Shown: positions 4,329-62,509 of the stretch, piece by piece
How the letters are laid out: each line of letters opens with the position of its first letter
Numbering within the stretch: position 1 is the first letter of the stretch
Source of the DNA: Minisyncoccota bacterium
GTDB taxonomy: Bacteria; Patescibacteriota; Minisyncoccia; Phycocordibacterales; PALSA-1337
Direction of reading: 5' to 3'
Assembly (NCBI GenBank): GCA_041671485.1
Contig: JBAZBL010000001.1
Location: forward strand, 23,037 to 87,036
Length of the DNA: 64,000 nucleotides
Notes under the pieces: model-generated
The model's input: only the letters and a program-made list of their open reading frames with translations
Told to the model about the DNA's origin: nothing
Database searches by the model: none
Position numbers and translations under genes: made by a program

Positions 4329-4934
4329 ATGCAAATAGGACCAAGATACAAAAAAGCAAGATACCTAGGAGCGCCAGTCTTCCGAAAGACGCAAACGCAA
4401 AAGTTTGCTATGCGATCGCAAAAGAAAACAAAGGTTAGGAGAGGACGTGGTGGCAAAAGCGAATACGGTCAACAATTGTTAGAAAAACAAAAAGCAAGAT
4501 ACAGCTATGGTGTTTCTAGTGGTCAATTCACAAATTATGTAAAGAAAGCTCTCAAGTCAACAGGTGACAATTCTCGCAATCTTCTGAAACTATTGGAAGG
4601 ACGATTAGATAATATAGTATTGCGTGCCAACTTTGCCCTAAGCAGGTTTGCAGCGAGACAAATGGTCTCTCACGGCCATATTATGGTTAATGATAAAATA
4701 GTTACGATCCCTTCATACGAAGTCAAGATTGGTGACAAGATATCTATTCGCGAAGGTAGTAAAAAGAAGGGAATATTCACAGATCTGGATCAAAATCTCA
4801 TCAATTTGCAAACACCAGAGTGGATAAAGGTCGATACAAAGAAGAGAGAAATAGCAATAGCAAGTGAACCATCTGTAGATATGAGTGAATTGCTATTTGA
4901 CGTTCGGTCAGTACTAGAATTCTATACACGCTAG
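4329..4934 (+). CDS. rpsD: 30S ribosomal protein S4
   Basis: 201 aa. N-terminal 'RYKKARYLG' and the S4 RNA-binding domain 'RLDNIVLRANFALSRFAARQMVSHGHIMVND' are present. Confidence 0.93.
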   Translation: MQIGPRYKKARYLGAPVFRKTQTQKFAMRSQKKTKVRRGRGGKSEYGQQLLEKQKARYSYGVSSGQFTNYVKKALKSTGDNSRNLLKLLEGRLDNIVLRANFALSRFAARQMVSHGHIMVNDKIVTIPSYEVKIGDKISIREGSKKKGIFTDLDQNLINLQTPEWIKVDTKKREIAIASEPSVDMSELLFDVRSVLEFYTR

Positions 4935-5011
4935 ACTAAGTCAATTTTTAGTGTATAATTATATGTCCATTTGCATTTTTAATAAAAATCTTAATTTTAA
5001 TAAAATATAAT

Positions 5012-5992
5012 ATGAAATACGACCTTATTTTGCCATCAAAACCAAAAGTAGTTAAAGAAGACGGTATTGTTGGAATCTATGAGATAGATGGCCTATCTCC
5101 TGGATATGGCCATACTCTCGGCAATTCTTTGAGACGGATTATCCTATCATCTCTTCCTGGAGCTGCTATAACCAAAGTCAAAATAAAGGGTGTAGATCAT
5201 GAATTTTCTGTGATAAATGGTGTTAAAGAAGATGTTATAACGATTCTCCTAAATATAAAGAAACTCCGTGTTCGCATAGATACTGATGAACCTCAAAATT
5301 TGCGTATAAAGGTGAAGGGCATTTCATCTATTGATGCCAAGGATATTGAAGCACCTGGCCAAGTAGAGATCCTAAATAAAGACCAGAATATTGCTACTCT
5401 AACAGAAAAGTCTTCTGAACTCGATATAGAGATGACAGCAGAGAAGGGTCTCGGATATGTGCAAAAAGAAATCTTACAGAAAGAGCGAGTTGATATAGGT
5501 TCAATAACACTTGATGCTGCATTCACGCCTATCCGAAAAGCAAATTATGAAGTTGAAAATATGCGTGTTGGTGATAGAACAGACTACAATCGTCTAAGGG
5601 TTATGATAGAAACTGATGGATCGATAACTCCAAGGGAGGCACTGGAAAGGTCTATAGAAATAATGATCAATCAATTGAAGTCAATAATTGGTTTCAGAGA
5701 GGGGGATGAAAAAACAGGAGAAACAGAAAGTGAAAAAGAATTGGCAAAAAGCAAACGTGAATCCAACAAAGCAAAGAATGAGCTTGGGGCGGATCTCTTG
5801 AAGACAAGGATTGACTCTATGGATCTATCATCTAGAACGACAAAAGCATTGGCTGGAGCAAATATACATACTCTAGGAGGCCTTTCGAGGAAGAAGGAGG
5901 CTGACATTATGGATGTCGATGGTTTGGGTGCAAAAGGAATGCAGGAAATCAAAAAACTTTTAGCTCAATATAGTATTACATTGAGACAATAA
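5012..5992 (+). CDS. rpoA: DNA-directed RNA polymerase subunit alpha
   Basis: 326 aa. The NTD '[21 protein letters not shown]'-type motif appears here as '[25 protein letters not shown]'. The CTD carries an HhH ('[15 protein letters not shown]'). The gene follows rpsD as in the alpha operon. Confidence 0.93.
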   Translation: [326 protein letters not shown]

Positions 5993-5996
5993 TAAA

Positions 5997-6347
5997 ATGA
6001 GACATCATAGTAATACAAGGAAATTTGGTAGAGAGAAGAATCAACGCGCGGCTTTATTGCGTTCTCTAGCACGCAACTTGATACGAGATGGACGTATAAA
6101 AACAACATTAGCAAAAGCAAAAGAATTGAGACCGATGGTAGAAAAGATGGTAACAAAGGCAAAGGTTGTTACTGTCGCTTCTAGGAGACTCATATCTTCT
6201 AGATTGAGAGGAGTAGAAGAGACAAAGAAACTTTTTAGCGAATTGGGACCAAAATATATTTCGAGAAAAGGTGGTTATACGAGGATTATCCGTATGCCAA
6301 ATAGAGATAAAGACAATAGCTCTATGGCACTTATCGAATTTGTCTAA
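5997..6347 (+). CDS. rplQ: 50S ribosomal protein L17
   Basis: 116 aa. 'MRHHSNTRKFGREKNQRAALLRSLARNLI' is the L17 N-terminus. Confidence 0.93.
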   Translation: MRHHSNTRKFGREKNQRAALLRSLARNLIRDGRIKTTLAKAKELRPMVEKMVTKAKVVTVASRRLISSRLRGVEETKKLFSELGPKYISRKGGYTRIIRMPNRDKDNSSMALIEFV

Positions 6348-7136: not shown

Positions 7137-7700
7137 ATGGAAAATGACTCTATAAATATAGTATCAGATGATAGTTTGGACGATTCGGTCGTAGCAGAAG
7201 AACATACAGGAGAAATGATAAAGAAGCTTCGCGAGAAGCTGAAGATCTGTGAAAAAGAAAAACTTGAATATCTAACAGGTTGGCAACGAGCCAAGGCCGA
7301 TCTTATTAATGCTAGAAAAAGAGATGATGATGATCGTAAAGAATTTATCAGATTTGCAAATGAAGGACTTTTGAATGATATACTGCCTGTTCTAGAGAGT
7401 TGGGACTCTGCAATGAATCACAAAGAATCTTGGGAAAAGGGAGATCCGAGCTGGAGGCAGGGGATGGAGTCTATCATAAATCAATTGAAGGGAGTTCTTT
7501 CTAATAATGGTCTAGCAGAGATAAACCCACTAGGAGAGAAGTTTGACCATTCCAAACATGAATCTGTATCACATAAAATAGTTGATGATGCCAAACTCGA
7601 CCAAATGATTCTTGATGTTGTACAAAAAGGTTATTCTCTGGGTGATAAAATATTGAAGCCTGCAAAGGTGGTAGTAGCTGAATACCGGGCTGTAGTATAG
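7137..7700 (+). CDS. grpE: Nucleotide exchange factor GrpE (3' end overlaps tRNA-Pro by ~15 nt)
   Basis: 187 aa. 'WQRAKADLINARKR' (the GrpE 'AEFENYRKR'-like motif), 'LPVLESWDSAM' and the C-terminal 'PAKVVVAE' are present. The stop TAG at 7698-7700 lies inside the predicted tRNA. Confidence 0.8.
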   Translation: MENDSINIVSDDSLDDSVVAEEHTGEMIKKLREKLKICEKEKLEYLTGWQRAKADLINARKRDDDDRKEFIRFANEGLLNDILPVLESWDSAMNHKESWEKGDPSWRQGMESIINQLKGVLSNNGLAEINPLGEKFDHSKHESVSHKIVDDAKLDQMILDVVQKGYSLGDKILKPAKVVVAEYRAVV

Positions 7701-7756
7701 CGGTAGTATACACCCATGGGGTGGGTGTAGTCCGGGTTCGACTCCCGGCAGCCCGA
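7686..7756 (+). tRNA. tRNA-Pro (anticodon GGG), atypical D/anticodon junction (71 nt, no encoded CCA)
   Basis: Perfect 7-bp acceptor CGGGCTG/CAGCCCG with discriminator A. D arm GTAT/ATAC with loop AGCGGTAGT. T arm CCGGG-TTCGACT-CCCGG. Anticodon hairpin CACCC-[ATGGGGT]-GGGTG gives U33-GGG-G37. The stretch between the D stem and the T stem is 2-3 nt shorter than canonical, so the fold is non-standard. Confidence 0.55.
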
Positions 7757-7773
7757 AGGGATGAAACAAGTCG
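7739..7773 (+). repeat. 35-bp direct repeat copy 1 (tRNA-Pro T-loop/3' end plus 17 nt of 3' flank)
   Basis: CGACTCCCGGCAGCCCGAAGGGATGAAACAAGTCG, identical to 7874-7908. Confidence 0.9.
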
Positions 7774-7873
7774 CTAATGCGACTTGTTTAGGGAGGCGAA
7801 AGGGTTTTCGATGTTTGCGAGGACGAGCTTGTCGAGTCCAAGCAAACCGAAAACCACCTGGCGACGTAGTCGC

Positions 7874-7908
7874 CGACTCCCGGCAGCCCGAAGGGATGAA
7901 ACAAGTCG
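7874..7908 (+). repeat. 35-bp direct repeat copy 2 (displaced partial tRNA-Pro 3' end); a third degenerate fragment GTAGTCCGAC at ~7925-7935
   Basis: Exact 35/35 match to 7739-7773. It is preceded by GTAGTC...GCC, which mimics the tRNA variable-loop/T-stem region with a deletion. Confidence 0.9.
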
Positions 7909-7933
7909 TTTTAACGACTTCCTGGTAGTCCGA

Positions 7934-9502
7934 CTAAAACGAGAAACTAAATGTGCTACCCATTCCAGATCCATCCGACTCTGCCCAAATCTTGCCTTTG
8001 TGACGCTCTATAATGTCTTTGGACATGTATAAACCTATACCCATGCCTTCTGTATATTGAGAACGGGCACGATTGCCACGATAAAATTTACTAAAGAGTA
8101 ATGGTATTTCTTCTTTTGGTACTCCAATACCACTATCCTTGACAGAATAAACAATTGTACCATTGATTGTATTTTTTAGTGATATAACTATAGTACCATT
8201 TTCTTTTGAATAGTGAATTGCATTCTCTAAGAATACCTGAATTACAAATTTTATTCGACTTTCATCACATACTGTATTTACATTTTGATCAAAATTTTTC
8301 TCTATTTGTAGTTTCTTTGCTCCAATTTGATCTTTCAATGAATCCACAATATCTTCAATTAGTGGATTTAGATTAATATTTGTTTTGTGATATTCATATG
8401 ATGCATTGTCAGTCTCTGAAACATTGATAAGTAAATCTGTAAGACCTACAAGCTTTGAATTTGCTTCACGGATATAGTCTATTTGTGTACGGTCTTCTAC
8501 ATTTGAGACTGTTTTATTGAGATTCTCTGCGGCCCATTTGATATGTGTAAGTGGTGTTCTAAATTTGTGTGTAACTGTTGTAATAAATTCGTATTTGAGT
8601 AGATCTTGTTCACGCAATCTACGCCATACGACTATCGCTATACTAACAACAATGATAGATATAATTATCGGTGAAACCCAAATCGGAAAATTCTGATAAT
8701 AGACTTGTGCTAGTCTATTGAAATAATCAAACAATGCTATAACTCCACCAACCAAAGCAATAGCAACGCCATAAAAAAATGCTTGTTTGGCAATAACTTT
8801 TATATCACACAATCCGTATTTCACAGCACCATATATTAAAAATGGTACAGATAGGCCAAGGAATGCCATACCCCAGACAGGGTCTATATGTATATTATAT
8901 ACAAGAAAATTGGCAGTATTTCCTGGAACATAGCCAAAAAACATTGCCAATATAAAATATTTTATTTTATTTCTCCAAAGTGTATCTTCTTTCTTGGCTT
9001 TGAAATATGCAACAATAAGTAAGTACATACAATATGGAAATATCAATACATACATAAATAACATACGAACAAAGTTCAAAACTCCAGGATCATAGTAATT
9101 TGGAAAATACATCTTTGGTATTGATGGGAGCAAGAATGTCTCTGGGAATATAATGAAAAATACAAGCATAGATATGCTAAAAGCATATACTAGAGATATA
9201 CTATATCTACTCTTATATTCTATATTTAGGAATGTTGTGATTCCGTGATAATTGAAAGTAATTATAAAAAAGTTAACTAGGTTGAACATCAATGCAATCT
9301 TAGAAATATTTGGATCGGCAATATTGACGCCTATTACATGGGAAAGGGAAAATATAGCAGCACATAGCATTGTAAGAGCAAGTAGTATAGTAGTCTTTGA
9401 TCTAAAATTATTGAAAAAGAAAAATGAAGCCAAACCAATACCAGCTATTACTGATACAATACTCAAAATATTGTGAATAATTAGATTTATATTTGCATCC
9501 AT
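7934..9502 (-). CDS. Membrane-bound sensor histidine kinase (multi-TM N-terminus, HisKA + HATPase_c)
   Basis: 522 aa. About 8 predicted TM helices. H-box 'THKFRTPLTHIKWAAENL'. ATPase G-boxes 'DSGIGVPKEEIPLLFSKFYRG' and 'GMGIGLYMSKDII'. No cognate response regulator is adjacent. Confidence 0.85.
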   Translation of the reverse strand: MDANINLIIHNILSIVSVIAGIGLASFFFFNNFRSKTTILLALTMLCAAIFSLSHVIGVNIADPNISKIALMFNLVNFFIITFNYHGITTFLNIEYKSRYSISLVYAFSISMLVFFIIFPETFLLPSIPKMYFPNYYDPGVLNFVRMLFMYVLIFPYCMYLLIVAYFKAKKEDTLWRNKIKYFILAMFFGYVPGNTANFLVYNIHIDPVWGMAFLGLSVPFLIYGAVKYGLCDIKVIAKQAFFYGVAIALVGGVIALFDYFNRLAQVYYQNFPIWVSPIIISIIVVSIAIVVWRRLREQDLLKYEFITTVTHKFRTPLTHIKWAAENLNKTVSNVEDRTQIDYIREANSKLVGLTDLLINVSETDNASYEYHKTNINLNPLIEDIVDSLKDQIGAKKLQIEKNFDQNVNTVCDESRIKFVIQVFLENAIHYSKENGTIVISLKNTINGTIVYSVKDSGIGVPKEEIPLLFSKFYRGNRARSQYTEGMGIGLYMSKDIIERHKGKIWAESDGSGMGSTFSFSF

Positions 9503-11419: not shown

Positions 11420-12382
11420 ATGATCAATCAACTTGTAAAATATATGCATCCATTTGAAAAAATACTAAGTGTTTCAAAAGAAAATATTGTTCTTGAAATA
11501 AAAGGCTTTTCTGATTTACCATGGGTAGATTTCTTACTTAATCCTCGCCGTTTAAGAGGTAGCGACTTCTTGATGCGATGGTCACAGGGGGTTTGGAGCG
11601 AAAATCGTCTTATTGAAGCGATAAATGAAAGCGGGAAATATTTTGCCGTTCCTTATGGTCCGAGCGGAACTGCCCCAACAGACGATGTACGGGCATTTGA
11701 ACTTTATTTTGAACGTTTAGAGAAAGCAGGTCTTGGTCATATAAAAAGACCAGATTTACTTGTATTCAAGAAAACAAACGAGAAAGCAGTGAGCAAGATT
11801 CTAAAAAATATTGGCGGAATACAAGAATTGCCTTTTACAGAAGAAAGTAAGCTTGATGGATTGCTTAAGATGGCAACGGTGGCAGTAGAATGTGAAAACA
11901 GTCTATGGAAATCAAAGAAAATGCCTGATTATGAAACTCTTCTTACACCACAGAAAAGATTAAACGGTCAGTTTGGATTGAAGAAAACAGCTGTTTTACC
12001 AACTGTAATCATTAAAGAAGAAGACCGAGAACCTCTTAATAAGTGGCAGGAAAATAATAAAGTACTGATTCATGTGTGGCATGTATTTTACGACCAAGCA
12101 TTTGGTATTCCTCTCAAAGAAGTGGAACGGTTGATCAGTAATGGTCTTATTCAGCCGACGATTCAAACATTTCAGGCACCCGGCGGAGCAACGACAAAGA
12201 AAGCCATATACAAAATCTATTACCGTTATGCCTATCCACTTGGTGACGCTATAGAAGAACCTACGCTTATTTCAGATTGTATTGAGGACAAGAATGGACA
12301 CATTTTGCCGTATGTTAAATTCCATGGAGGTAAGTTAAGACTTAACAATGAAGCTATTAAAGTCCTGGATTCAATTTTATGA
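11420..12382 (+). CDS. Putative type II restriction endonuclease (uncharacterised family), translationally coupled to downstream N6-adenine methyltransferase
   Basis: 320-aa ORF with no recognisable family. Its TGA stop overlaps the ATG of the methylase (ATGA). There is a possible PD-(D/E)xK-like 'RPDLLVFKK'. The call rests on genomic context. Confidence 0.4.
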   Translation: MINQLVKYMHPFEKILSVSKENIVLEIKGFSDLPWVDFLLNPRRLRGSDFLMRWSQGVWSENRLIEAINESGKYFAVPYGPSGTAPTDDVRAFELYFERLEKAGLGHIKRPDLLVFKKTNEKAVSKILKNIGGIQELPFTEESKLDGLLKMATVAVECENSLWKSKKMPDYETLLTPQKRLNGQFGLKKTAVLPTVIIKEEDREPLNKWQENNKVLIHVWHVFYDQAFGIPLKEVERLISNGLIQPTIQTFQAPGGATTKKAIYKIYYRYAYPLGDAIEEPTLISDCIEDKNGHILPYVKFHGGKLRLNNEAIKVLDSIL

Positions 12383-13890
12383 AAAGAATTATTCATCAAA
12401 AATTACCATCTCAACACAATGAGAGAGAAAGACTTAGAGATAAGGGACAATTTTGGACTCCGAGCTGGGTTGCTGATGCAATGGTTGCTTATGTGGCCAA
12501 AAATGCCGATCTTGTCTTCGATCCCGGAGTTGGTAAGGGTGTTTTTTATAGCTCGCTCAAAAAGATTAATCCGAAAATTAAATTCTACGGTACGGATATT
12601 GACCCAAATATTATTACTGATGCAAAAGCTGAAGGTATTTTTGATGATAATGCTCATCTCGAGATAAGAGATTTTATCCTCAATACTCCAAAGAAACTAT
12701 TCCGAGGTATTGTCGCAAATCCACCTTATATACGCCATCATCGTCTGTCACAAGAATATAAAGAAAAATTTAAAGCAATAAGTATACGGTCAATGAATGA
12801 CACACTCGATGGTCGCGCTGGTTTGCATATTTATTTCCTTATTCAAGCTCTAAACTTACTCGATAAAGGTGGTAGACTTGCTTTCATTATGCCAGCAGAT
12901 ACATGTGAAGGCATATTTTCAAAAAAGCTTTGGGATTGGATTTCAAAAGATTTCGCCATTGATGGTGTAATAACTTTTGACCATAAAGCTACACCTTTCC
13001 CTGGTGTAGATACTAATGCAGTTATCTTTTTAATCCGCAAAGACAGTCCAATAGAAAAAATAAAGTGGATTAAATGTTTGGAGCCAGAAACTACTCAATT
13101 ATTGAGTCTTATAAACGATGATTTCAAAGACGATAAGTTTTCTGATCTAGTTATCTATGATAGAGATTTAGAAGAAGCAATCTCGACAGGCTTGTCAAGG
13201 GCACCACAGGATAGAAAATTTGAATTCACTTTGGTCGATTTTGCAAAAGTAATGCGTGGTATCGCTACAGGTGCTAACGAATTCTTTTTTCTCACAAAGA
13301 AAAAGGTGAAGGAACTTAAGATTCCCGATAAATTCTTTCTTACAGCAGTTGGTCGGACACGCGATGCTGAGGGGTCTTATATTACAAAAGAAACTCTAGA
13401 AAAATTGGAAAGAAAAGGGAGGCCTACGCTTCTGTTTTTTCCTAATGGGACTGATTGGAAAAATATGCCTGATTCAGTTAAAAATTATATTATAGAGGGT
13501 CAGAAAATGGGATTGTCTAATCGCGCGTTGATTTCAACAAGACAACCTTGGTATAAAATGGAAGTTAGAGAAAAACCAGTATTTTTATTTGCTTATCTTG
13601 GTAGAAGAAATGCGCGGTTTATAAAAAATGAAGCAGGGATTATTCCACTCACTAGTTTCCTTTGTGTATATCCCCATTCAGATAATAAGGAATATATTGA
13701 TAAACTATGGGGAGTTTTACAACATCCAGATACAATCTCAAATTTGCAACTAGTTGGAAAATCTTATGGTTCTGGAGCAATTAAAGTTGAGCCTCGGTCA
13801 TTAGAGAGATTACCTATAAGTTCTAAAATTATTAAGGAATTTGGTCTAAATCCTATTAAGTTGGGATTATCTTTGTTTACACAAACATAG
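12379..13890 (+). CDS. N6-adenine DNA methyltransferase, gamma-class (Eco57I/TaqI-like), type II R-M
   Basis: Motif X 'GQFWTPSWVADAM', motif I 'FDPGVGKGVF', motif IV 'NPPYI' (NPPY), and a C-terminal target-recognition region. Confidence 0.85.
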   Translation: MKRIIHQKLPSQHNERERLRDKGQFWTPSWVADAMVAYVAKNADLVFDPGVGKGVFYSSLKKINPKIKFYGTDIDPNIITDAKAEGIFDDNAHLEIRDFILNTPKKLFRGIVANPPYIRHHRLSQEYKEKFKAISIRSMNDTLDGRAGLHIYFLIQALNLLDKGGRLAFIMPADTCEGIFSKKLWDWISKDFAIDGVITFDHKATPFPGVDTNAVIFLIRKDSPIEKIKWIKCLEPETTQLLSLINDDFKDDKFSDLVIYDRDLEEAISTGLSRAPQDRKFEFTLVDFAKVMRGIATGANEFFFLTKKKVKELKIPDKFFLTAVGRTRDAEGSYITKETLEKLERKGRPTLLFFPNGTDWKNMPDSVKNYIIEGQKMGLSNRALISTRQPWYKMEVREKPVFLFAYLGRRNARFIKNEAGIIPLTSFLCVYPHSDNKEYIDKLWGVLQHPDTISNLQLVGKSYGSGAIKVEPRSLERLPISSKIIKEFGLNPIKLGLSLFTQT

Positions 13891-28107: not shown

Positions 28108-30858
28108 ATGCCTCCATTAAATAAGCTTACAACCAAAGCCCGTGAAGCTCTAAAAAGAGCCCATGAACTCGCTATTGAACGTGGACAAAACCATGTCAAT
28201 CCAGCACATTTGCTCTGTGCACTTCTTTTGCAAGAAGAAAGTATGGTTACATCTGTCTTAGACAAATTGGATATAGATACAACCATGCTTATTGATGTAG
28301 TTCTGGAACATATAGAAGCACCTGATGGATCCAATGTCCTTTCACCTTCATATCAGATATATATTACTCCAGACTTAGCACAAATTCTCGACAATTCTTT
28401 ACGAGTAACAACAAATATGAAAGAGGAATTTATATCAACCGAACATTTATTCTTGGCAATATTTGAAGTACCCTGTATAGCTCGTGATATTTTGAGTAGA
28501 TTCAAGATAGAGCGCGATCAGATAATAAAGATCATAGAGGAGCTCAAAGCCAATCCGCCATCCAAAGAAAATCAGCCAAAGAAATTTAGAACTCTATACA
28601 AATATGCAAGAAGTCTAACCAGGCTTGCACATGAAAATAAACTCGATCCTGTGATCGGTCGTGATGCAGAGATAATGCGAATAGTACAAATATTATCTCG
28701 AAGAACAAAAAACAATCCTATACTGATAGGTGAAGCTGGGGTAGGAAAGACTGCAATAGCAGAAGGCTTGGCTCTCCGTATGGCACAGGGTGATATTCCA
28801 GAATCTCTGAAAGACAAAGAGCTTGTATCACTAGATTTGGGTTCTCTCATAGCAGGTACAAAATATCGTGGAGAATTCGAAGAAAGACTCAAAAATATAC
28901 TGAAAGAAATAGAGCGTGCAGATGGAAAAATAATTTTATTTATAGATGAAATGCATACACTAGTTGGAGCTGGTGCCGCAGAAGGTTCTATGGATGCTTC
29001 AAATATGCTAAAACCTGCTCTTGCTCGTGGAGAATTGCGTGCTATAGGAGCTACAACACTCAAGGAATATCAGAAACATATAGAGAAGGATCCGGCCCTG
29101 ACTCGCAGATTTCAACCTGTTTTCGTACAAGAACCAAGTATAGAAGATGCAATAGCTATATTGCGTGGAATAAAGGAAAAATATGAACTATATCATGGTG
29201 TTAGGATCACAGACGATGCTATCGTTGCATCTGTCACCCTAGCAAGCCGTTATATCACCGACAGATTCTTGCCTGATAAAGTAGTTGATCTTATAGATGA
29301 AGCAGCATCATCTCTACGTATTTCACTAGAGAATATGCCTCCAGAACTTGAAGAGTCTAGGAGAAAGATCATGCGTCTAGAAATAGAAAAAGAGGCTTTA
29401 AAGAAAGAAAATGATCTACCGGACAAGCAAAGTAATAAAACGACTAAAACAAGGATGTTGAAGATAGAAAAAGAGATTGCTGATATTAGAGAAAGTACTT
29501 CCGAAATCGAATTGAAATGGAAAAATGAAAAATCTGCAATAGGTGATATAAAGAGAATAAAGAAAGAATTGGAGACTTTGCGTATAGAAGCAGAGATGGC
29601 AGAGTCGAGGTCCGATCTATCCAAAGCTGCAGAGATAAGATATGGCAAACTTCCTGCATTAGAAAAGGAATTGGACCAGAAGAATAAACGTCTCAAGAAA
29701 TTGCAATCCTCGAGAAGAATACTAAAAGAAGAAATAAATGCAGAAGATATAGCAGGAGTTGTATCTCGTTGGACTGGTATACCAGTCTCTAGAATGCTAG
29801 AATCCGAAGCATCAAAACTAATGCGTATGGAAAATGAATTGCAGAGGAGAATTGTTGGGCAAAATGATGCAGTATCAAAGATAGCCGATACAATAAGACG
29901 TTCTCGCGCAGGTATAGCAGATCCAAATCGCCCAATTGGCTCATTTATATTCCTAGGTCCTACTGGAGTAGGGAAAACAGAACTTACAAAAGCTCTTGCA
30001 GAATTCTTATTCAATGATGAAAAATCTCTAGTGCGAGTAGATATGTCAGAATTCATGGAGAAACATTCTGTATCAAAGTTGATCGGGGCTCCTCCTGGTT
30101 ATATTGGCCATGATGATGGAGGATCATTCACGGAAACTATAAGACATAGGCCTTACTCGGTAGTTCTCTTTGATGAAATCGAAAAGGCTCATCCAGAAGT
30201 CTTCAATATCTTACTTCAAGTACTAGACAATGGTCGCCTCACAGATGCAAAAGGCCGTATTGTCAATTTTAGAAATACGGTTATCATCATGACTTCGAAT
30301 ATTGGCGCACAATATATTGAAAAAATGGAAAAGATAGGTTTTGCAAAAAATGTGAAAGATGTTGATAGAGACAATTATACTGGAGCAAAAGAAAAAGTTA
30401 TGACATCCCTCAAGGATTATTTTCGACCAGAATTTTTGAATCGCGTAGATGATATTATAATCTTCGATATCTTGTCCCATGAAGCAATAAAAGAAATAGT
30501 TGGTATTCAGGTCAAAGAAGTTGTAAAGAGGCTTGTAGACAAAAATATCGAGCTTATCTTATCTCCAGAAGTTATGGATTATCTTTCCCTAGAAGGATAT
30601 AACCCACAATATGGTGCTAGACCATTGAAAAGACTGATCCAGACCAAGATTTTGACTCCAGTAGCTAGATTGCTCATAAGTAATGAAGTGGGTAAAAACG
30701 GTATCATAAATGTTACAATGCCAATACTACAAAAAGTTTCAAAAGATATTTCTTTAGATTCTACAGAAAAGAAAGAAGTCAATTTCGTATTTGAAGTAAG
30801 CAAGAAGAGGAAAAACAATAGATCGATTGTACTAGGGGAGATGGTACTTCAAAAATAG
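28108..30858 (+). CDS. clpB: ATP-dependent chaperone ClpB (AAA+ disaggregase); start at internal ATG 28108
   Basis: Clp_N repeats. NBD1 Walker A 'GEAGVGKTAIAEGLA'. A long coiled-coil M-domain. NBD2 Walker A 'LGPTGVGKTELTKALA'. A sensor-2 region is present. Confidence 0.9.
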   Translation: MPPLNKLTTKAREALKRAHELAIERGQNHVNPAHLLCALLLQEESMVTSVLDKLDIDTTMLIDVVLEHIEAPDGSNVLSPSYQIYITPDLAQILDNSLRVTTNMKEEFISTEHLFLAIFEVPCIARDILSRFKIERDQIIKIIEELKANPPSKENQPKKFRTLYKYARSLTRLAHENKLDPVIGRDAEIMRIVQILSRRTKNNPILIGEAGVGKTAIAEGLALRMAQGDIPESLKDKELVSLDLGSLIAGTKYRGEFEERLKNILKEIERADGKIILFIDEMHTLVGAGAAEGSMDASNMLKPALARGELRAIGATTLKEYQKHIEKDPALTRRFQPVFVQEPSIEDAIAILRGIKEKYELYHGVRITDDAIVASVTLASRYITDRFLPDKVVDLIDEAASSLRISLENMPPELEESRRKIMRLEIEKEALKKENDLPDKQSNKTTKTRMLKIEKEIADIRESTSEIELKWKNEKSAIGDIKRIKKELETLRIEAEMAESRSDLSKAAEIRYGKLPALEKELDQKNKRLKKLQSSRRILKEEINAEDIAGVVSRWTGIPVSRMLESEASKLMRMENELQRRIVGQNDAVSKIADTIRRSRAGIADPNRPIGSFIFLGPTGVGKTELTKALAEFLFNDEKSLVRVDMSEFMEKHSVSKLIGAPPGYIGHDDGGSFTETIRHRPYSVVLFDEIEKAHPEVFNILLQVLDNGRLTDAKGRIVNFRNTVIIMTSNIGAQYIEKMEKIGFAKNVKDVDRDNYTGAKEKVMTSLKDYFRPEFLNRVDDIIIFDILSHEAIKEIVGIQVKEVVKRLVDKNIELILSPEVMDYLSLEGYNPQYGARPLKRLIQTKILTPVARLLISNEVGKNGIINVTMPILQKVSKDISLDSTEKKEVNFVFEVSKKRKNNRSIVLGEMVLQK

Positions 30859-30918
30859 TATTGACTAAGTAAAGATAAAAATCTACTATATAGTAAGTAC
30901 TTTTATTATAAATTAAAT

Positions 30919-31002
30919 GCGCAGGTGGCAGAGTGGTCAATTGCAGTGGACTGTAAATCCATCGCCCTATGGGCTCCGGGGGTTCAAATCCCTCCCTGCG
31001 CA
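30919..31002 (+). tRNA. tRNA-Tyr (GTA), class II with long variable arm
   Basis: Acceptor GCGCAGG/CCTGCGC with discriminator A. Anticodon arm GTGGA-[CTGTAAA]-TCCAT. Variable hairpin GCCC-TAT-GGGC. T arm GGGGG-TTCAAAT-CCCTC. Confidence 0.9.
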
Positions 31003-31012
31003 CATGAAAAAA

Positions 31013-31032
31013 CCGAGCAAAGCTCGGTTTTT
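31013..31032 (+). terminator. Rho-independent terminator CCGAGC-AAA-GCTCGG-TTTTT immediately after tRNA-Tyr
   Basis: 6-bp GC stem followed by a T5 tract. Confidence 0.7.
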
Positions 31033-31187
31033 GAGTGGACGCAGAGCAAAGCGCTTGAGCGCTTTGCGTGGAGGGATTTGAAAAGGTCGAGCATATTTTC
31101 GAACCTGAGCGAGCGATCAGCGAGTCGAAGGTGAGAAAATGCGAGACCTGTACAGAGTCTGTAAGACTCAAATCCCTCCCTGCGCAC
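31033..31187 (+). mobile_element. tRNA-3'-end-associated miniature element (copy 1), ending in a 20-bp duplicate of the tRNA-Tyr 3' end
   Basis: The direct repeat TCAAATCCCTCCCTGCGCAC occurs at 30984-31003 and 31168-31187. The left arm ACGCAG-[GC hairpin AGCAAAGCGCTTGAGCGCTTTGC]-GTGGAGGGATTTGAA is antisense to the tRNA 3' end. A ~60-nt core GAAAAGGTCGAGCATATTTTCGAACCTGAGCGAGCGATCAGCGAGTCGAAGGTGAGAAAATGCGA is ~97% identical to 43378-43438. Confidence 0.7.
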
Positions 31188-31219
31188 AAAATTTTACGTC
31201 AAGGTTAGTTCTTGCTGTA

Positions 31220-32389
31220 TCATACAATGACTCTTTTCAAATGTGCTGGTATCTTGACCACTATTTCATAGGGAATAGTGTTGCACTTCTGTGCAATTGA
31301 TATTATTGAATTCTGATCAGAGCTATTGTCGCTTATCACCGTGACTGGTGTATTGATCTTAATATCTTTCACATTTGATACATCAATAGAAGTGATATTC
31401 ATACTCACGTGGCCGATGATGGGGCATGGAATATTATTATCTCCAACCAATATTGTTCCAACATTAGATAGTCTCCTATCCACACCTTCGAAATAACCAA
31501 CAGGTATGGTTGCAATTCGCATATCATTCAATGCTTTGAATGTATTGCCATAGCCAACTGTCTCGCCCTTCTTTATTTGTTTTATACTTGTAATGATAGT
31601 CTTCATCTTGAGAACTGGTAATAAATTGATCTTATGTTCAAATAGATCTCCATCTTTGAGACCATAAAGACCTATCCCTAGTCTTGAAACATTGGACTTT
31701 ATTTTATCCGAAAATTTGTTACCATCTGTATTGCTTATATGAAAATATTTTATGTCAGGAAAAGTTTTCTTGAATTTGTCTACAATACTATTCCAAAGAA
31801 TTATTTGCTTCTGTGTAAAAAAAGTGTCTAGATTATCTGCATCAGATAAGTGTGAAGCAATGCCTTCTATCTTAATATTTTTATTATTCTTTATGATCTC
31901 TATTGCTTGATTTACTTCTTCGGGTAATATACCTTGGCGATGCATACCTGTATCTATCTTCAAATGAATAGGGGATTTGATCTTTTTGTATTTGGATAAG
32001 GCATGAAGTACTTCGACACTACTAACAGTAAAAGAGATATTTTTTAGTCTAGAATTGGCAATCGTTTCTGGGTGAGAATAGCCGATGATAAGTAGTGGAG
32101 TCTTTATACCTTTTGCTCTCAATGCAATTGCTTCAAAATACGAATCGACAACGAAAAATGGTATATCTCCGTTCACGAGGTCCGACCTTGCGGAATTCAA
32201 TATTTGAGCTACCTCTAATAGACCATGACCATAGGCATTACTCTTCAATACGGGGGCAATTTGACCATTTGGCACCAATTTACGGAACTCATTGAGATTG
32301 TCCAATAGGCGACTTTTAGAAATCTCAATAGTTATAAGTGGTTCGTAAGGAAAACATGATTTGGACAAGCTTTTGAGCCATTTTTTCAT
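31220..32389 (-). CDS. alr: Alanine racemase
   Basis: PLP-lysine motif 'APVLKSNAYGHG'. 389 aa with a TIM-barrel plus beta C-domain architecture. Confidence 0.88.
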   Translation of the reverse strand: MKKWLKSLSKSCFPYEPLITIEISKSRLLDNLNEFRKLVPNGQIAPVLKSNAYGHGLLEVAQILNSARSDLVNGDIPFFVVDSYFEAIALRAKGIKTPLLIIGYSHPETIANSRLKNISFTVSSVEVLHALSKYKKIKSPIHLKIDTGMHRQGILPEEVNQAIEIIKNNKNIKIEGIASHLSDADNLDTFFTQKQIILWNSIVDKFKKTFPDIKYFHISNTDGNKFSDKIKSNVSRLGIGLYGLKDGDLFEHKINLLPVLKMKTIITSIKQIKKGETVGYGNTFKALNDMRIATIPVGYFEGVDRRLSNVGTILVGDNNIPCPIIGHVSMNITSIDVSNVKDIKINTPVTVISDNSSDQNSIISIAQKCNTIPYEIVVKIPAHLKRVIV

Positions 32390-36900: not shown

Positions 36901-37170
36901 CTAGATTATAGTGAGTTTCAAACCTAACCCAGAGGTAACTTTTTGGAGAAAAGAAAGGGTAGGATTTGTTCTACCGGATTCAAGACGAGAAAGGGCTGCT
37001 TGAGTAATACCCAATTTTAATGCCAGTTGTTTCTGGGTGAGTTTCTTTTGGATCCGAGCTTCTATAAGTGCATCGTGAATTTTGAATTCCACCTCAAGAC
37101 TATCATAAGCTTTCTTGTTCTCTGGATCACTAAGAAACTCCTCCATGACTTGTTTGTGTGTTTTCATCAT
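36901..37170 (-). CDS. HTH XRE-family antitoxin (HigA-like)
   Basis: 89 aa. C-terminal HTH 'LTQKQLALKLGITQAALSRLESGRTNPTLSFLQKV'. It sits immediately downstream of the toxin gene on the same strand. Confidence 0.75.
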   Translation of the reverse strand: MMKTHKQVMEEFLSDPENKKAYDSLEVEFKIHDALIEARIQKKLTQKQLALKLGITQAALSRLESGRTNPTLSFLQKVTSGLGLKLTII

Positions 37171-37196
37171 AAAACTAATATAGCATATACGGCATA

Positions 37197-37514
37197 TTAT
37201 GCAAATCCAACAACCTCTTTCTGAATTCTCCTGGCATAACTAATATCTTTTAAACTTATTCTCCAAGCTTTCTTGATAAAACCATGAACAATGTATGCTT
37301 TATTATTCTGGAATACGTACAAGATTCTTATTTGATTTTTACCAAGAGTTCTAAGTTCAAATAACCCCTTACCCAGACTTTTAGAATCAGGCATCCCTAA
37401 TAAATATCCGAATTTTTCCAGAGAATTTACTGTCTTTTTTATGCGGGAGGATGTGATCTTGTCTAGACCATTTATAAATTCTCGCACTTTTTCATTCCAA
37501 TAAATTATTTCCAT
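37197..37514 (-). CDS. RelE/HigB-type toxin (Gp49-like, DUF891 family)
   Basis: 'GLFELRTLGKNQIRILYVFQNNKAYIVHGFIKK' matches the Gp49/HigB family pattern. It lies upstream of an XRE antitoxin, the reversed HigBA order. Confidence 0.7.
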   Translation of the reverse strand: MEIIYWNEKVREFINGLDKITSSRIKKTVNSLEKFGYLLGMPDSKSLGKGLFELRTLGKNQIRILYVFQNNKAYIVHGFIKKAWRISLKDISYARRIQKEVVGFA

Positions 37515-37598
37515 ATCCGCATAATACATCACACATAAGAAAATGCAAAAAGATGGCATTGAATGACTGTGTCCACTTTATGGGGTACAGATCAATTG

Positions 37599-41874: not shown

Positions 41875-42246
41875 ATGATAAAAAACAAGAATAAATTTAA
41901 GAAGAGGTTGTATTCATGGACTTTGAATATAATTAGATTAACAGACACATTACCTGATTTATTGTCTGCGGATGTAATAGGTAAACAATTGATGAGAAGC
42001 GGAACAAGCATTATTGCCAATTATGTTGAAGCAAAATCTGCCAGTTCAAGAAAAGATTATATAAACTTTTTCACTCACGCACTAAAATCTGCCAATGAAT
42101 CAAAAGTGTGGTTAACAATGATGAAAGATTTAGAAATTGGAAATAGAGAGCAAACCTGTGTATTATTAAGAGAGTTAGATGAAATATCAAAAATATTGGC
42201 ATCTAGTATCATAACCCTTAAGAATAAAGGTGATAAAAATCTTTGA
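41875..42246 (+). CDS. Four-helix-bundle protein (family often found in rRNA IVS/tRNA loci)
   Basis: 'LMRSGTSIIANYVEAKSASSRKDYINFFTHALKSANESKVWL' fits the four-helix-bundle (PF05635-like) pattern. Family membership is recalled from memory. Confidence 0.6.
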   Translation: MIKNKNKFKKRLYSWTLNIIRLTDTLPDLLSADVIGKQLMRSGTSIIANYVEAKSASSRKDYINFFTHALKSANESKVWLTMMKDLEIGNREQTCVLLRELDEISKILASSIITLKNKGDKNL

Positions 42247-43083: not shown

Positions 43084-43220
43084 CTGCGAATTTTGCATAA
43101 GCGTAGCGAATGGCAAAATTCAGCATCCTCTCGAAGTTCGATCCGCCAGCTGGCGGAGAGGGACGAAGCAGGAATTAGTATTAATTTTTGATCTTTGATT
43201 TTTAATTTTTGACTTAATAT

Positions 43221-43304
43221 GCCCGGGTGGCGAAATTGGTATACGCGCAAGACTTAAAATTTTGTAGCCGTAAGGCTGTGTGGGTTCGATTCCCACCCCG
43301 GGCA
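43221..43304 (+). tRNA. tRNA-Leu (TAA), class II
   Basis: Acceptor GCCCGGG/CCCGGGC with discriminator A. Anticodon arm CAAGA-[CTTAAAA]-TTTTG. Variable hairpin TAGCCGTAAGGCTG. T arm TGGGT-TCGATTC-CCACC. Confidence 0.85.
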
Positions 43305-43486
43305 CACTAAAAAATATATAATGATAGACTTATTTGCCCGGGAGCAAGGTGCATTTGCACCTTGCGAGTGAGAATCGAAAAGTCTGAGCATATTTTCGAA
43401 CCTGAGCGAGCGATCAGCGAGTGGAAGGTGAGAAAATGCGAAGACTATACCGTTCCAGTATGGAAAGATTCCCACCCCGGGCACAC
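43305..43486 (+). mobile_element. tRNA-3'-end-associated miniature element (copy 2), ending in a 20-bp duplicate of the tRNA-Leu(TAA) 3' end
   Basis: The direct repeat GATTCCCACCCCGGGCACAC occurs at 43288-43307 and 43467-43486. The left arm TTTGCCCGGG-[GC hairpin AGCAAGGTGCATTTGCACCTTGC]-GAGTGAGAATCGAA is antisense to the tRNA 3' end. The ~60-nt core at 43378-43438 is shared with the tRNA-Tyr copy. Confidence 0.7.
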
Positions 43487-43502
43487 TTGATCTGTACCCC
43501 AT

Positions 43503-61608: not shown

Positions 61609-61843
61609 ATGGGTATTATAGCAAGAAAGTATATGAATTTCTTTATGCTAGAGTTATCAACAACAAGTAAATTTGACTATATATATCCAATTTGTTAGTC
61701 TTTAATTAGAAGTATGCAATAATAACTTACGAGGTGCTCCGATGTTCCCTCAGAATATCTGGGGCTTGAGTTGGAGAACACCACCTTGTGAGACGCTACT
61801 TCTAACAAAGAACCCCTTTCCACTTCGGTCAGGGATTTTTTGT

Positions 61844-62509
61844 TTATATTATAATCGATTTTCCATTGAACAATTCCCTCCCCTTTCCAATAATATTTTT
61901 CTTCAGAATTTTGAAACATTCCTCACCTAGTTTTCCTTTTTCAAGATATCGTGCCAAAGCTCCTGCAATCCAGTCGGCAATTTGAATATTCACTACCGCA
62001 GTTGAATCAACCATTTCAATTTGTAAAACTACACCCTTTGGCAAGGATGGTAACAGACGAGCTTTTAGGACTTCCTTGAATTCTGTCTCGGACATACCAC
62101 TCAATCTTCTACGGTCGCAGAAAACACGAAACTCTTTATCAGTTGTCGGTAAATATGATGTTAGTATTTCGCCGACTATATTTGTATATAAAAGTCCGCT
62201 CTGTAATTTATTTTTATGATGATACTCTGCTGGAATATTTCTATGAAGTAAATAGGCAAAATGTATTCGAACATCTAGTTTTGAAATCTCTCTCAAAGTC
62301 TTTAGGCGTAAGGCATCAGAAAATCCGGTACTTGCCCATTTAATCTCACTCAGATCACGCATCTTTCTAGGAAAATGGCCACGAAGCCATGCTCGAAATC
62401 CCTTTGCTGTTCGCCGAACATTGCCAACAGTAAATGAAGCAACAATAAAATAGTTTTTATTACTGTACTTGGAAAATTGTCCACTTTCATCAAGAAAAAT
62501 ATATGGCAT
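61844..62509 (-). CDS. DUF3800-family protein
   Basis: N-terminal 'YIFLDESG' and C-terminal 'IQIADWIAGAL' match the DUF3800 signature motifs. Family membership is recalled from memory. Confidence 0.6.
   Translation of the reverse strand: MPYIFLDESGQFSKYSNKNYFIVASFTVGNVRRTAKGFRAWLRGHFPRKMRDLSEIKWASTGFSDALRLKTLREISKLDVRIHFAYLLHRNIPAEYHHKNKLQSGLLYTNIVGEILTSYLPTTDKEFRVFCDRRRLSGMSETEFKEVLKARLLPSLPKGVVLQIEMVDSTAVVNIQIADWIAGALARYLEKGKLGEECFKILKKNIIGKGRELFNGKSIII

Follow-up and report, generated by a model that had tools for sequence, protein, structure and literature searches.

Modular, non-coding units with a covarying fold and tRNA-matched arms at the 3′ ends of tRNA genes in Patescibacteria

We analysed a 64,000-bp stretch of the genome of a Minisyncoccota bacterium (contig JBAZBL010000001.1, positions 23,037 to 87,036; hereafter the window), in which a structured element, referred to below as the unit, lies between the tRNA-Tyr(gta) gene next to clpB and the convergent gene alr (Table 1). 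The 20-nt tail of tRNA-Tyr, TCAAATCCCTCCCTGCGCAC, has two exact occurrences in the window, at 30984-31003 and 31168-31187, where shuffled sequences predicted no match at all. An earlier note on this DNA had reported that the tail recurs exactly 164 nt downstream; this is correct, and the identity in fact extends to 21 nt. The 164-nt insert between the copies is non-coding, which agrees with the note's remark that the element is too small to encode a recombinase. Two independent Logan assemblies match the alr/repeat/core junction base for base, and both contigs end within the core, as a repeated sequence would lead one to expect. Samples such as SRR18595301 and SRR6484324 contain the organism, as do JGI and ENA assemblies with identical or near-identical copies of its alr. 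Homologues of alr and infB, which their sources list under Patescibacteria, Paceibacterota or Parcubacteria, place it among the Patescibacteria.

Table 1. Features of the tRNA-Tyr unit and of the two other units in the window (positions are those of the 64,000-bp stretch).
Feature	Position	Strand	Description
tRNA-Tyr(gta) gene	30919-31003 (ARAGORN); 30919-31002 (Rfam tRNA, 59.7 bits)	+	3′ end is repeat copy 1
Repeat copy 1 (DR1)	30984-31004	+	6 nt of T-loop, T-stem 3′ strand, acceptor 3′ strand, discriminator base, CA
Spacer hairpin	31008-31032	+	AAAAAACCGAGC-AAA-GCTCGGTTTTT; A-run, GC-stem, T-run; shape of a two-way intrinsic terminator (sequence, fold)
Left-arm part 1	31040-31044	+	CGCAG; antisense to acceptor 3′ strand CTGCG; partial adaptation to tRNA-Tyr
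Hairpin B	31046-31067	+	GCAAAGCGC-TTGA-GCGCTTTGC; perfect 9 bp; splits the antisense arm at the acceptor/T-stem boundary
Left-arm part 2	31070-31081	+	GGAGGGATTTGA; antisense to T-loop and T-stem 3′ strand; stem C with 31168-31179 (folds)
Hairpin D (core)	31084-31149	+	Basal stem P1, tandem GA/GA, GCAT/ATGC, AU bulge, TTTC/GAAA, second GA/GA
Apical module of hairpin D	31103-31132	+	Differs among units; other modules take its place elsewhere
Single-stranded linker	31149-31153	+	TGTAC; conserved; insertion point of an IS110-family element in locus L024
Hairpin E	31155-31169	+	GAGTC-TGTAA-GACTC; 15 nt; YGTAR loop; 3′ strand overlaps first bases of repeat copy 2
Repeat copy 2 (DR2)	31168-31188	+	Identical to tRNA-Tyr tail; followed by AAATT and the 3′ end of convergent alr
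Second unit	43221-43486	+	tRNA-Leu(taa) 43221-43305, AT-rich spacer, left arm from 43335; 114.5 bits (covariance model)
Second unit, core and repeat	43386-43441; 43466-43486	+	Core; repeat GATTCCCACCCCGGGCACACT (21 nt)
Third, diverged unit	7686-7908	+	tRNA-Pro(ggg) 7686-7756, unit 7763-7885; 58 bits, E = 4e-11 (covariance model)

The earlier note had described an antisense left arm split by a hairpin, followed by a core and a 3′ hairpin. We find the same anatomy, except that the splitting hairpin is not purely GC and that the 3′ hairpin E measures 15 nt rather than 23 nt. Together with its flanking bases, the spacer hairpin can fold into a longer hairpin in which the acceptor 3′ strand of the tRNA pairs with left-arm part 1. 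An equivalent of the spacer hairpin was found in most of the 19 tRNA-adjacent units looked at. A simple terminator scan did not flag the copy in the window because its A and T runs pair together. Open reading frames (ORFs) called mechanically across tRNAs and units (67-136 aa; 30779-31189, 30984-31187 and 43254-43502, all on the minus strand) are likely spurious gene calls. We considered and rejected a small peptide made from the unit, as the overlying ORFs are not conserved and the variation in the stems is compensatory.

The window holds three units among its eight tRNAs. The unit behind tRNA-Leu(taa) (43335-43486) has a 56-nt core with a single mismatch to that of the Tyr unit, while its arms differ, bearing out the note's observation of the same core at a second tRNA with a different repeat. 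In the diverged unit behind tRNA-Pro(ggg), the covariance model described below identifies the hairpin that directly follows the tRNA as hairpin B. A script comparing tRNA tails with downstream sequence found a 35-nt repeat at 7874-7908, which runs into a second, truncated unit. This region (7757-7960) forms a small tandem array adjoining a convergent histidine-kinase gene, and the truncated unit carries a B-like hairpin, AAACAAGTCGTTTTAACGACTT. Although all three units in the window would fit the 3′ untranslated region of a convergent gene, we rejected this possibility since same-strand downstream genes are common at other loci.

Two smaller pieces of related sequence lie near the other tRNAs of the window. 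The spacer between tRNA-Cys and tRNA-Leu(taa) (43085-43170) contains a GA-capped hairpin (GAATTTTGC..GCAAAATTC) and a module, GATCCGCCAGCTGGCGGAGAG, that forms the tip of hairpin D in two other loci (L019 and L027); the covariance model did not detect this piece, which could represent a degenerate unit or a module that moves on its own. The 16-mer TTGATCTGTACCCCAT has two exact matches, one behind tRNA-Leu(caa) (37580-37595, minus strand) and one behind the second repeat of the Leu(taa) unit (43487-43502, plus strand). Similar to the GACCTGTACC linker region of the unit, it may be a remnant of older units.

The constant part of the unit was chosen by comparing the window with a related locus (L008), and a metagenome collection was scanned with the resulting pattern, GCATATTTTCGA-N(8-38)-GAGAAAATGC, which returned 23 loci comprising about 19 true units. 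A covariance model (R1) was used next. At a cut-off of E = 1e-3, it identified 26 units in 20 sources; about 25 units lie beyond the window, on independent metagenome or genome contigs. The matches include GC-rich units in which every stem has changed and the GA/GA loops and the AU bulge are retained. The units measure about 150-185 nt and share the same architecture in more than 20 independent assemblies. Every unit that has a tRNA on its contig lies immediately 3′ of that tRNA and on the same strand. The orientation of the downstream gene is mixed. At least 12 tRNA species are used, including Tyr, Leu(taa, gag, tag), Pro(ggg, tgg), Arg(ccg), Ala(tgc), His, Ser(gct), Gly(gcc), two or three tRNA-Val species (cac, tac, gac) and one intron-containing tRNA. 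The unit thus belongs to a multi-copy, modular, non-coding family found at tRNA 3′ ends in Patescibacteria and is not a one-off scar, as the earlier note had already argued from two copies. The count of copies and tRNA contexts that the note had called for disposes of the possibility that the core occurs only at the two original sites. In loci fetched through neighbouring proteins, a sample that is unbiased with respect to the unit, units were found at 5 of 23 tRNAs, one locus (L035) having none at its five tRNAs.

Scans of other collections returned no further units. A scan of genome contigs with the apical 20-mer CTGAGCGAGCGATCAGCGAG, taken from the variable tip of hairpin D, yielded only four chance matches, in GC-rich genomes. 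Viral contigs had no match to an apical 21-mer and gave a single chance match to the core pattern, inside a coding region, and blastn against phage records revealed no unit. No family of Rfam 15 covers the unit, either in the window or in 20 further loci. At the Tyr unit only the tRNA itself scores, the best other match reaching 23 bits against a threshold of 48 bits. A ribozyme, a riboswitch, a known small RNA and a group I intron were all rejected on the basis of a permissive Rfam scan of positions 30800-31400 (E up to 10), which returned no such match. The literature that we searched contained no description of the unit; the group I introns published for tRNA genes of Patescibacteria are a different feature. 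One such intron lies in the tRNA preceding a unit at locus L032 (4881-5195), which is why ARAGORN misses that tRNA, and a LOOT RNA (RF03000) is present at locus L025 (528-646).

The arms change from one unit to the next and match the neighbouring tRNA. For 13 of 20 units, the second copy reproduces 19-35 nt of the tRNA tail exactly, from a point within the T-loop to 0-3 nt beyond the discriminator base; in the other seven it is shortened, decayed or lost. The antisense arm resembles the 5′ strands of the acceptor and T-stem of the tRNA itself. However, at the four tRNA G·U positions examined it invariably carries a Watson-Crick A, for instance A3-U70 in the unit at tRNA-Ala, and it therefore complements the tail instead of copying the 5′ strand of the tRNA. 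Pairing of the arms includes the T-loop bases and extends over the discriminator base (N73) and two trailer nucleotides, thereby leaving no free NCCA-type end. For these reasons (a paired T-loop, no free discriminator-CCA end and the conversion of G·U identity pairs to A-U), we rejected mimicry of a tRNA minihelix or of another tRNA-like structure, which the earlier note had offered as one interpretation.

Alleles of the individual hairpins (hairpin B, P1, hairpin E, the D tip and the capping hairpin) have been reshuffled across units whose arms differ, and a 30-nt apical module common to the Tyr and Leu units of the window is missing from the L008 orthologue of the Tyr unit. Such patterns suggest that units have exchanged parts within a genome and that the arms have adapted in place. 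In the Tyr units, the first antisense part matches the tail over only 4-5 nt; by its sequence it looks like a modified form of the arm found in His-type units, with which it shares the same capping hairpin module.

Despite these differences, the units share a common plan. Read 5′ to 3′ in the sense of the tRNA, the tRNA tail is followed by a capping hairpin, which is either terminator-like or a small UGAGCnnAGCGAA hairpin, and by a stretch complementary to the acceptor 3′ strand, the discriminator base and about two trailer nucleotides. Next come hairpin B, with the consensus (G)AGCAAGnnGC-loop-GCnnCTTGCG, and the antisense of the T-stem 3′ strand and T-loop. A GAAAAG linker leads to hairpin D (P1, GA/GA, GCAU/AUGC, AU bulge, UUUC/GAAA, GA/GA and a variable tip), and a UGUAC linker leads to hairpin E, with its YGUAR loop, and to the second copy of the tail. 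When one repeat period is folded as a circle, it forms a dumbbell with 60-77% of its bases paired (z from -5.6 to -14), in which both antisense parts pair with the tail along its whole length, hairpin B forms a branch, and the two ends are closed by the capping hairpin and by D/E.

Covariation strongly supports this fold. In an alignment of the 26 units, standard pairs occupy 96.9% of the cells, compared to 73.8% in shuffles, and double-sided changes occur in 33 of 37 pairs (211 cells) distributed over five helices; none of 500 shuffles reached the observed values. In slid controls, in which the pairing partners were moved by 1-3 columns, pairing fell to 30-54%. All nine pairs of hairpin B show double compensatory changes across the 26 units, with 99.6% of the cells paired, and so do all five pairs of hairpin E, while helix 2, formed by left-arm part 2 with the repeat, covaries with the type of tRNA. 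Compensatory changes affect even the otherwise fixed stems of the core in one relative (L040) and in the GC-rich units. The compensatory changes for which the earlier note had proposed a test are thus abundant, affecting 33 of the 37 pairs, and they support its description of the element as structured.

The two strands of the unit are not equivalent. In each of 24 units the tRNA-sense strand gives a more stable fold than its complement, by 6.4 kcal/mol on average (p = 2e-5), mainly because of the tandem GA/GA loops. These loops lie on the sense strand of both arms of D and are kept in the most diverged, GC-rich units. As they are present on the sense strand only, they cannot be a property of a symmetric double-stranded site. 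The data do not discriminate between an active sense RNA and active top-strand DNA.

Comparison with relatives revealed both persistence and turnover. A locus whose alr is 66% identical (L008) has the same clpB/tRNA-Tyr/unit arrangement, and its unit differs from that of the window by compensatory changes in the terminator-like hairpin, in hairpin B (A-T to G-C), at the base of D and in hairpin E; a short hairpin stands in place of the D tip, and the second repeat copy is decayed. In another orthologous pair (L016 and L030), the unit is likewise retained with compensatory changes. Elsewhere, units have been gained, lost or multiplied. Two different units, both with tRNA-His arms, stand in tandem at a single tRNA-His (L033), and two near-identical tandem units with arms of the tRNA-Leu(tag) type lie beside a tRNA-Val, their cognate tRNA not being on the contig (L017). 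Truncated units occur in L021, in L025 and at the Pro locus of the window, and an orphan, degenerate unit adjoins a Bro-N gene (L019). The window has a unit at tRNA-Leu(taa) and none at tRNA-Leu(tag), while the reverse holds for L040; the contigs of the 86-87% relative stop short of the tRNA-Leu locus. Finally, tRNA-Tyr has no unit in L007, in which alr is 87% identical, or in L035, the neighbourhood being rearranged in both.

The interval between tRNA-Tyr and alr is an insertion hotspot in relatives. In one of them (L036), it holds a 2.8-kb Bro-N island that ends in a remnant of the unit joined to GCGCACAAAAATT beside alr, and the alr flank, GCGCACAAAA(A)TT, is the same as that of the second repeat copy in the window. 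In a JGI contig (3300075153) found through its alr homologue (P0007) and known from its genes alone, an NYN gene, a Rep gene (REP_ORF2-G2P) and a gene for a 495-aa large serine recombinase lie between alr and clpB; the recombinase gene stops 119 nt short of clpB, at the place taken by tRNA-Tyr in other loci. The island has the appearance of a plasmid- or phage-like element integrated at this same hotspot.

Units are also targets for insertion sequences (IS). At locus L024, an IS110-family element of about 1.35 kb (DEDD_Tnp_IS110 and Transposase_20; 4771-6112, minus strand, locus coordinates) sits exactly at the conserved TGTAC linker of a tRNA-Ser unit, and hairpin E and the tRNA-Ser repeat resume past it, indicating that the IS interrupts the unit, which served as its insertion target. 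Members of the IS110 family target repeated structured sites such as repetitive extragenic palindromes (REP) and attC. About 200 nt of non-coding sequence follow the transposase gene of this element, where its guide RNA may be encoded.

We tentatively favour the view, which we regard as plausible rather than probable, that the unit is a non-autonomous, recombining repeat element anchored in the tRNA tail, whose folded sense single strand would be the substrate of recombination. Each unit extends from one tail copy to the following one, and its sense single strand folds into the closed dumbbell, in which the tail and its antisense copy make a duplex replica, about 20 bp long, of the end of the tRNA gene. 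This folded strand, much like integron attC, the attP of CTX-phi or the pairing of internal guides with element ends in IS200/IS605, would recombine with the identical tail of a tRNA gene by means of an enzyme supplied in trans. The tRNA would remain intact after insertion because the unit supplies a replacement tail, and often a terminator too; the old tail would be pushed to the far side, creating the direct repeat, and the regenerated target would permit tandem arrays. An empty site at tRNA-Tyr would accordingly read tRNA-Tyr joined straight to AAAATTTTACGTCAAGG. Units within a genome would exchange modules by gene conversion, and the arms would stay matched to the tRNA through templated correction of the quasi-palindrome type combined with selection for pairing. 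Such an element accounts for the direct repeat, for an antisense arm that matches both copies, for the intact tRNA and terminator, for tandem arrays and turnover, and for a fold that is conserved rather than its sequence.

Several observations weigh against a recombining element of this kind. The pair counts come from an alignment fitted to the model, and 22 bases of the core were fixed in the pattern used to gather the first 19 units. With the invariant core excluded, departures to G·U and to A·C occur about equally often, so that the strand assignment rests mainly on the GA loops and not on the variable stems. By sequence, the Tyr units of the window and L008 look orthologous, and such long vertical persistence under selection would fit a host function equally well. 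Neither an excised circle nor a clean pair of filled and empty sites within one species was observed. A Pfam scan of 30 of the roughly 66 ORFs in the window revealed no recombinase, integrase, transposase or reverse transcriptase, and no gene for a recombinase, transposase or reverse transcriptase stands consistently beside the units. Lastly, the presence of different arms on the same internal modules calls for a retargeting process that is only postulated.

A functional sense RNA is the alternative that we take most seriously, although we consider it possible rather than likely. The unit would then be the last module of the tRNA transcript, read through from the tRNA promoter, or a separate small RNA. 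It might serve tRNA operons in processing, termination or stability, or bind a protein, its closing stem in that case reusing the tRNA tail by coincidence; its copies would be host genes, duplicating and homogenized by gene conversion. The strong covariation of five helices is what such an RNA should display, and the sheared-type tandem GA/GA loops and the YGUAR loop are retained exclusively on the tRNA-sense strand. Every unit has the same orientation as its upstream tRNA, promoter-like sites occur upstream of the tRNAs and none before the units, and the orthologous pairs (window and L008, L016 and L030) have been retained with compensatory changes. About one third of the units have no U-tract terminator after the tRNA, only a small GA-capped hairpin, and co-transcription with the tRNA is therefore expected for them. 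Many other units, however, are preceded by a terminator-like hairpin, and the family as a whole is patchy and dispensable, with truncated, decayed, tandem and orphan copies and one copy interrupted by an IS. Its arms leave no tRNA-like free 3′ end, A3-U70 in the tRNA-Ala unit speaks against mimicry for aminoacylation, no Rfam family matches, and no cis-regulated gene is evident because the downstream genes have mixed orientations. An RNA function and a recombining element are not mutually exclusive. A more specific form of mobility, which we judge unlikely, is a guide-programmed element, in which the antisense arm of about 20 nt would pair with both its own tail copy and the chromosomal tRNA tail, a single-stranded circle of DNA or RNA, folded as a dumbbell, would enter and leave any tRNA gene with the same tail as its own, and retargeting would come about by templated rewriting of the arms.

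The remaining explanations find less room in the data. The earlier note had read the repeat as a classic attL/attR signature. As an ordinary integrase footprint, the 164-bp interval would be what a tyrosine-integrase element, integrated into the T-loop/3′ end of the tRNA, left behind by internal deletion, in the manner of a cis-mobilizable element (CIME) or a scar. The repeat does span the segment from T-loop to 3′ end, which is the usual identity block of tRNA-targeting integrases, and relatives carry different islands between tRNA-Tyr and alr, one bearing a serine recombinase and Rep, the other Bro-N and a unit remnant. Large serine recombinases leave repeats of only about 2 bp. Independent deletions would not yield the same covarying 150-nt fold at 12 or more tRNA species, which also makes an excision scar unlikely. 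Nor does an integrase explain the antisense arm, the constant core with its changing arms, the shuffled helix modules, the long-kept orthologous units with their compensatory changes or the incomplete adaptation of the left arm to tRNA-Tyr. Beside the crossover region there is no T-stem-like inverted core site, and the scanned ORFs included no integrase. The family data thus already largely refute this explanation, which we consider improbable. The same IS that interrupts the tRNA-Ser unit of L024 might suggest that the unit is the guide RNA (bridge RNA or seekRNA) of an IS110/IS1111-type element, or another part of an IS, since, on the same strand, 63 nt separate the left part of the unit from the transposase gene downstream. 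The junctions led us to reject a bridge-RNA identity, however, as the IS splits the unit and hairpin E and the repeat resume beyond it; moreover, no transposase lies near any other unit, and the two arms are complementary to each other, whereas bridge RNAs have unpaired guide loops. A role as an IS part thus appears very improbable. Even less credit is due to a chance repeat or an assembly artefact: short-read assemblies do break inside the core, which is all that can be said in its favour, while no match was expected by chance, the two Logan assemblies agree on the junction, and more than 20 independent loci share the architecture. The earlier observation was correct and understated, and neither its attL/attR reading nor its minihelix reading is sufficient to explain the unit.

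The unit fits none of the known families tested and can be likened to small structured repeats or to integrative elements. Like REP and their mosaics (BIME), Correia and RUP elements and ERIC-type miniature inverted-repeat transposable elements (MITE), the units are short, non-coding, multi-copy, extragenic, imperfectly palindromic and modular. As with REP/BIME-type repeats, which often lie at gene ends or terminators, they are targets of the IS110 family and evolve with preservation of structure. Unlike such repeats, however, they are tied to tRNA 3′ ends, their arms are the sense and antisense of the neighbouring tail and vary from site to site, and they contain a direct repeat of about 20 nt instead of a target duplication of 2-9 bp or none. 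They are also larger and branched, with five helices, and neither a REP-associated tyrosine transposase (RAYT) nor a parent IS was identified, the scanned ORFs including no RAYT (Y1) gene. A MITE origin fits poorly with arms that, although inverted copies of each other, change with the tRNA, with a duplication that consists of about 20 nt of tRNA, and with the absence of a parent IS, as the sole IS seen interrupts a unit.

Integron attC sites and the attP(+) of CTX-phi share with the unit inverted copies of a site around a structured, variable centre, a single structured strand, extra-helical features on one arm (hairpin B in the unit) and a variable sequence with a conserved fold. Tandem, cassette-like arrays separated by a repeated site are a further likeness to attC, and the IS1111-attC group targets attC as the IS of L024 targets the unit. 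By contrast, the units have no GTTRRRY/RYYYAAC core (the T-loop of the arm reads GTTCRAN), and no IntI was found among the scanned ORFs; the site is a 20-bp replica of a tRNA end, and the would-be cassette is a hairpin devoid of genes. P4-like tRNA-targeting integrative elements and CIMEs likewise have a direct repeat from T-loop to 3′ end, restore the tRNA with a tail carried by the element, accrete in tandem at one tRNA and occupy loci that are hotspots for other islands. They differ from the units, which measure 150-185 bp, carry no genes, have the same core at 12 or more tRNA species and possess an antisense arm and a covarying fold.

IS200/IS605 elements and their small non-autonomous derivatives, the palindrome-associated transposable elements (PATE), are similarly strand-specific and hairpin-based. 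By analogy with their internal sequence beside a hairpin, which pairs with both the element end and the target, an antisense arm matching both tails could be explained. Their guides are 4-5 nt long, however, compared to about 20 nt here, they have no direct repeat, and no Y1 (HUH) transposase was found here. Among RNAs, the tRNA-like domain of transfer-messenger RNA (tmRNA), mascRNA, viral tRNA-like structures (TLS) and bacterial Y RNA have 5′ and 3′ ends that pair as a tRNA acceptor and T-stem and a hairpin at the acceptor/T-stem junction; the units, for their part, sit in a tRNA transcription unit. Unlike these modules, they have a paired T-loop, discriminator and trailer and an A3-U70 pair, and the Rfam models for tRNA, tmRNA and TLS miss them. 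To our knowledge, no REP, MITE, attC or integrative element has outer arms rewritten to match a neighbouring tRNA.

The genomes of Patescibacteria are very small, yet they carry many of these units of 150-185 nt, whose covariation is among the clearest signals to be hoped for in an uncharacterized element and whose design is unusual, with a constant folded core and outer arms rewritten to match the tRNA ahead of them. If the units are mobile, they would reveal a way of recombining in which a tRNA tail is recognized through base pairing, and they would explain why short-read assemblies of such genomes break at tRNA loci. If they are guide-programmed, they would constitute a natural nucleic-acid-guided insertion system aimed at tRNA genes. 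We see a real chance of a new, base-pairing-guided targeting of tRNA genes. If instead they act as RNA, they would add a new, common module to the tRNA transcription units of a major bacterial radiation. In either case, the family provides a testable object and an annotation model for a feature that is now covered by spurious ORFs, such as those at 30779-31189 and 43254-43502.

The window contains other features near its tRNAs and elsewhere. Directly behind tRNA-Leu(caa) lie a Gp49/HigB-like toxin gene and an HTH_3 antitoxin-like gene (36901-37559, minus strand); a fragment of a similar Gp49/HigB-like toxin gene is found behind tRNA-Tyr in L035. Between tRNA-Lys and tRNA-Leu(tag), a gene on the plus strand (41875-42246) codes for a "23S rRNA intervening sequence protein" (PF05635), a four-helix bundle related to the Avd protein of diversity-generating retroelements. 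A restriction-modification pair consisting of an AccI-like endonuclease and an Eco57I-type N6-methylase is encoded at 11420-13890 (plus strand). Finally, a DUF3800-V RNA (RF02964) scores 82.6 bits, against a threshold of 37.4 bits, at 61708-61803 on the plus strand, upstream of a minus-strand ORF (61844-62509).

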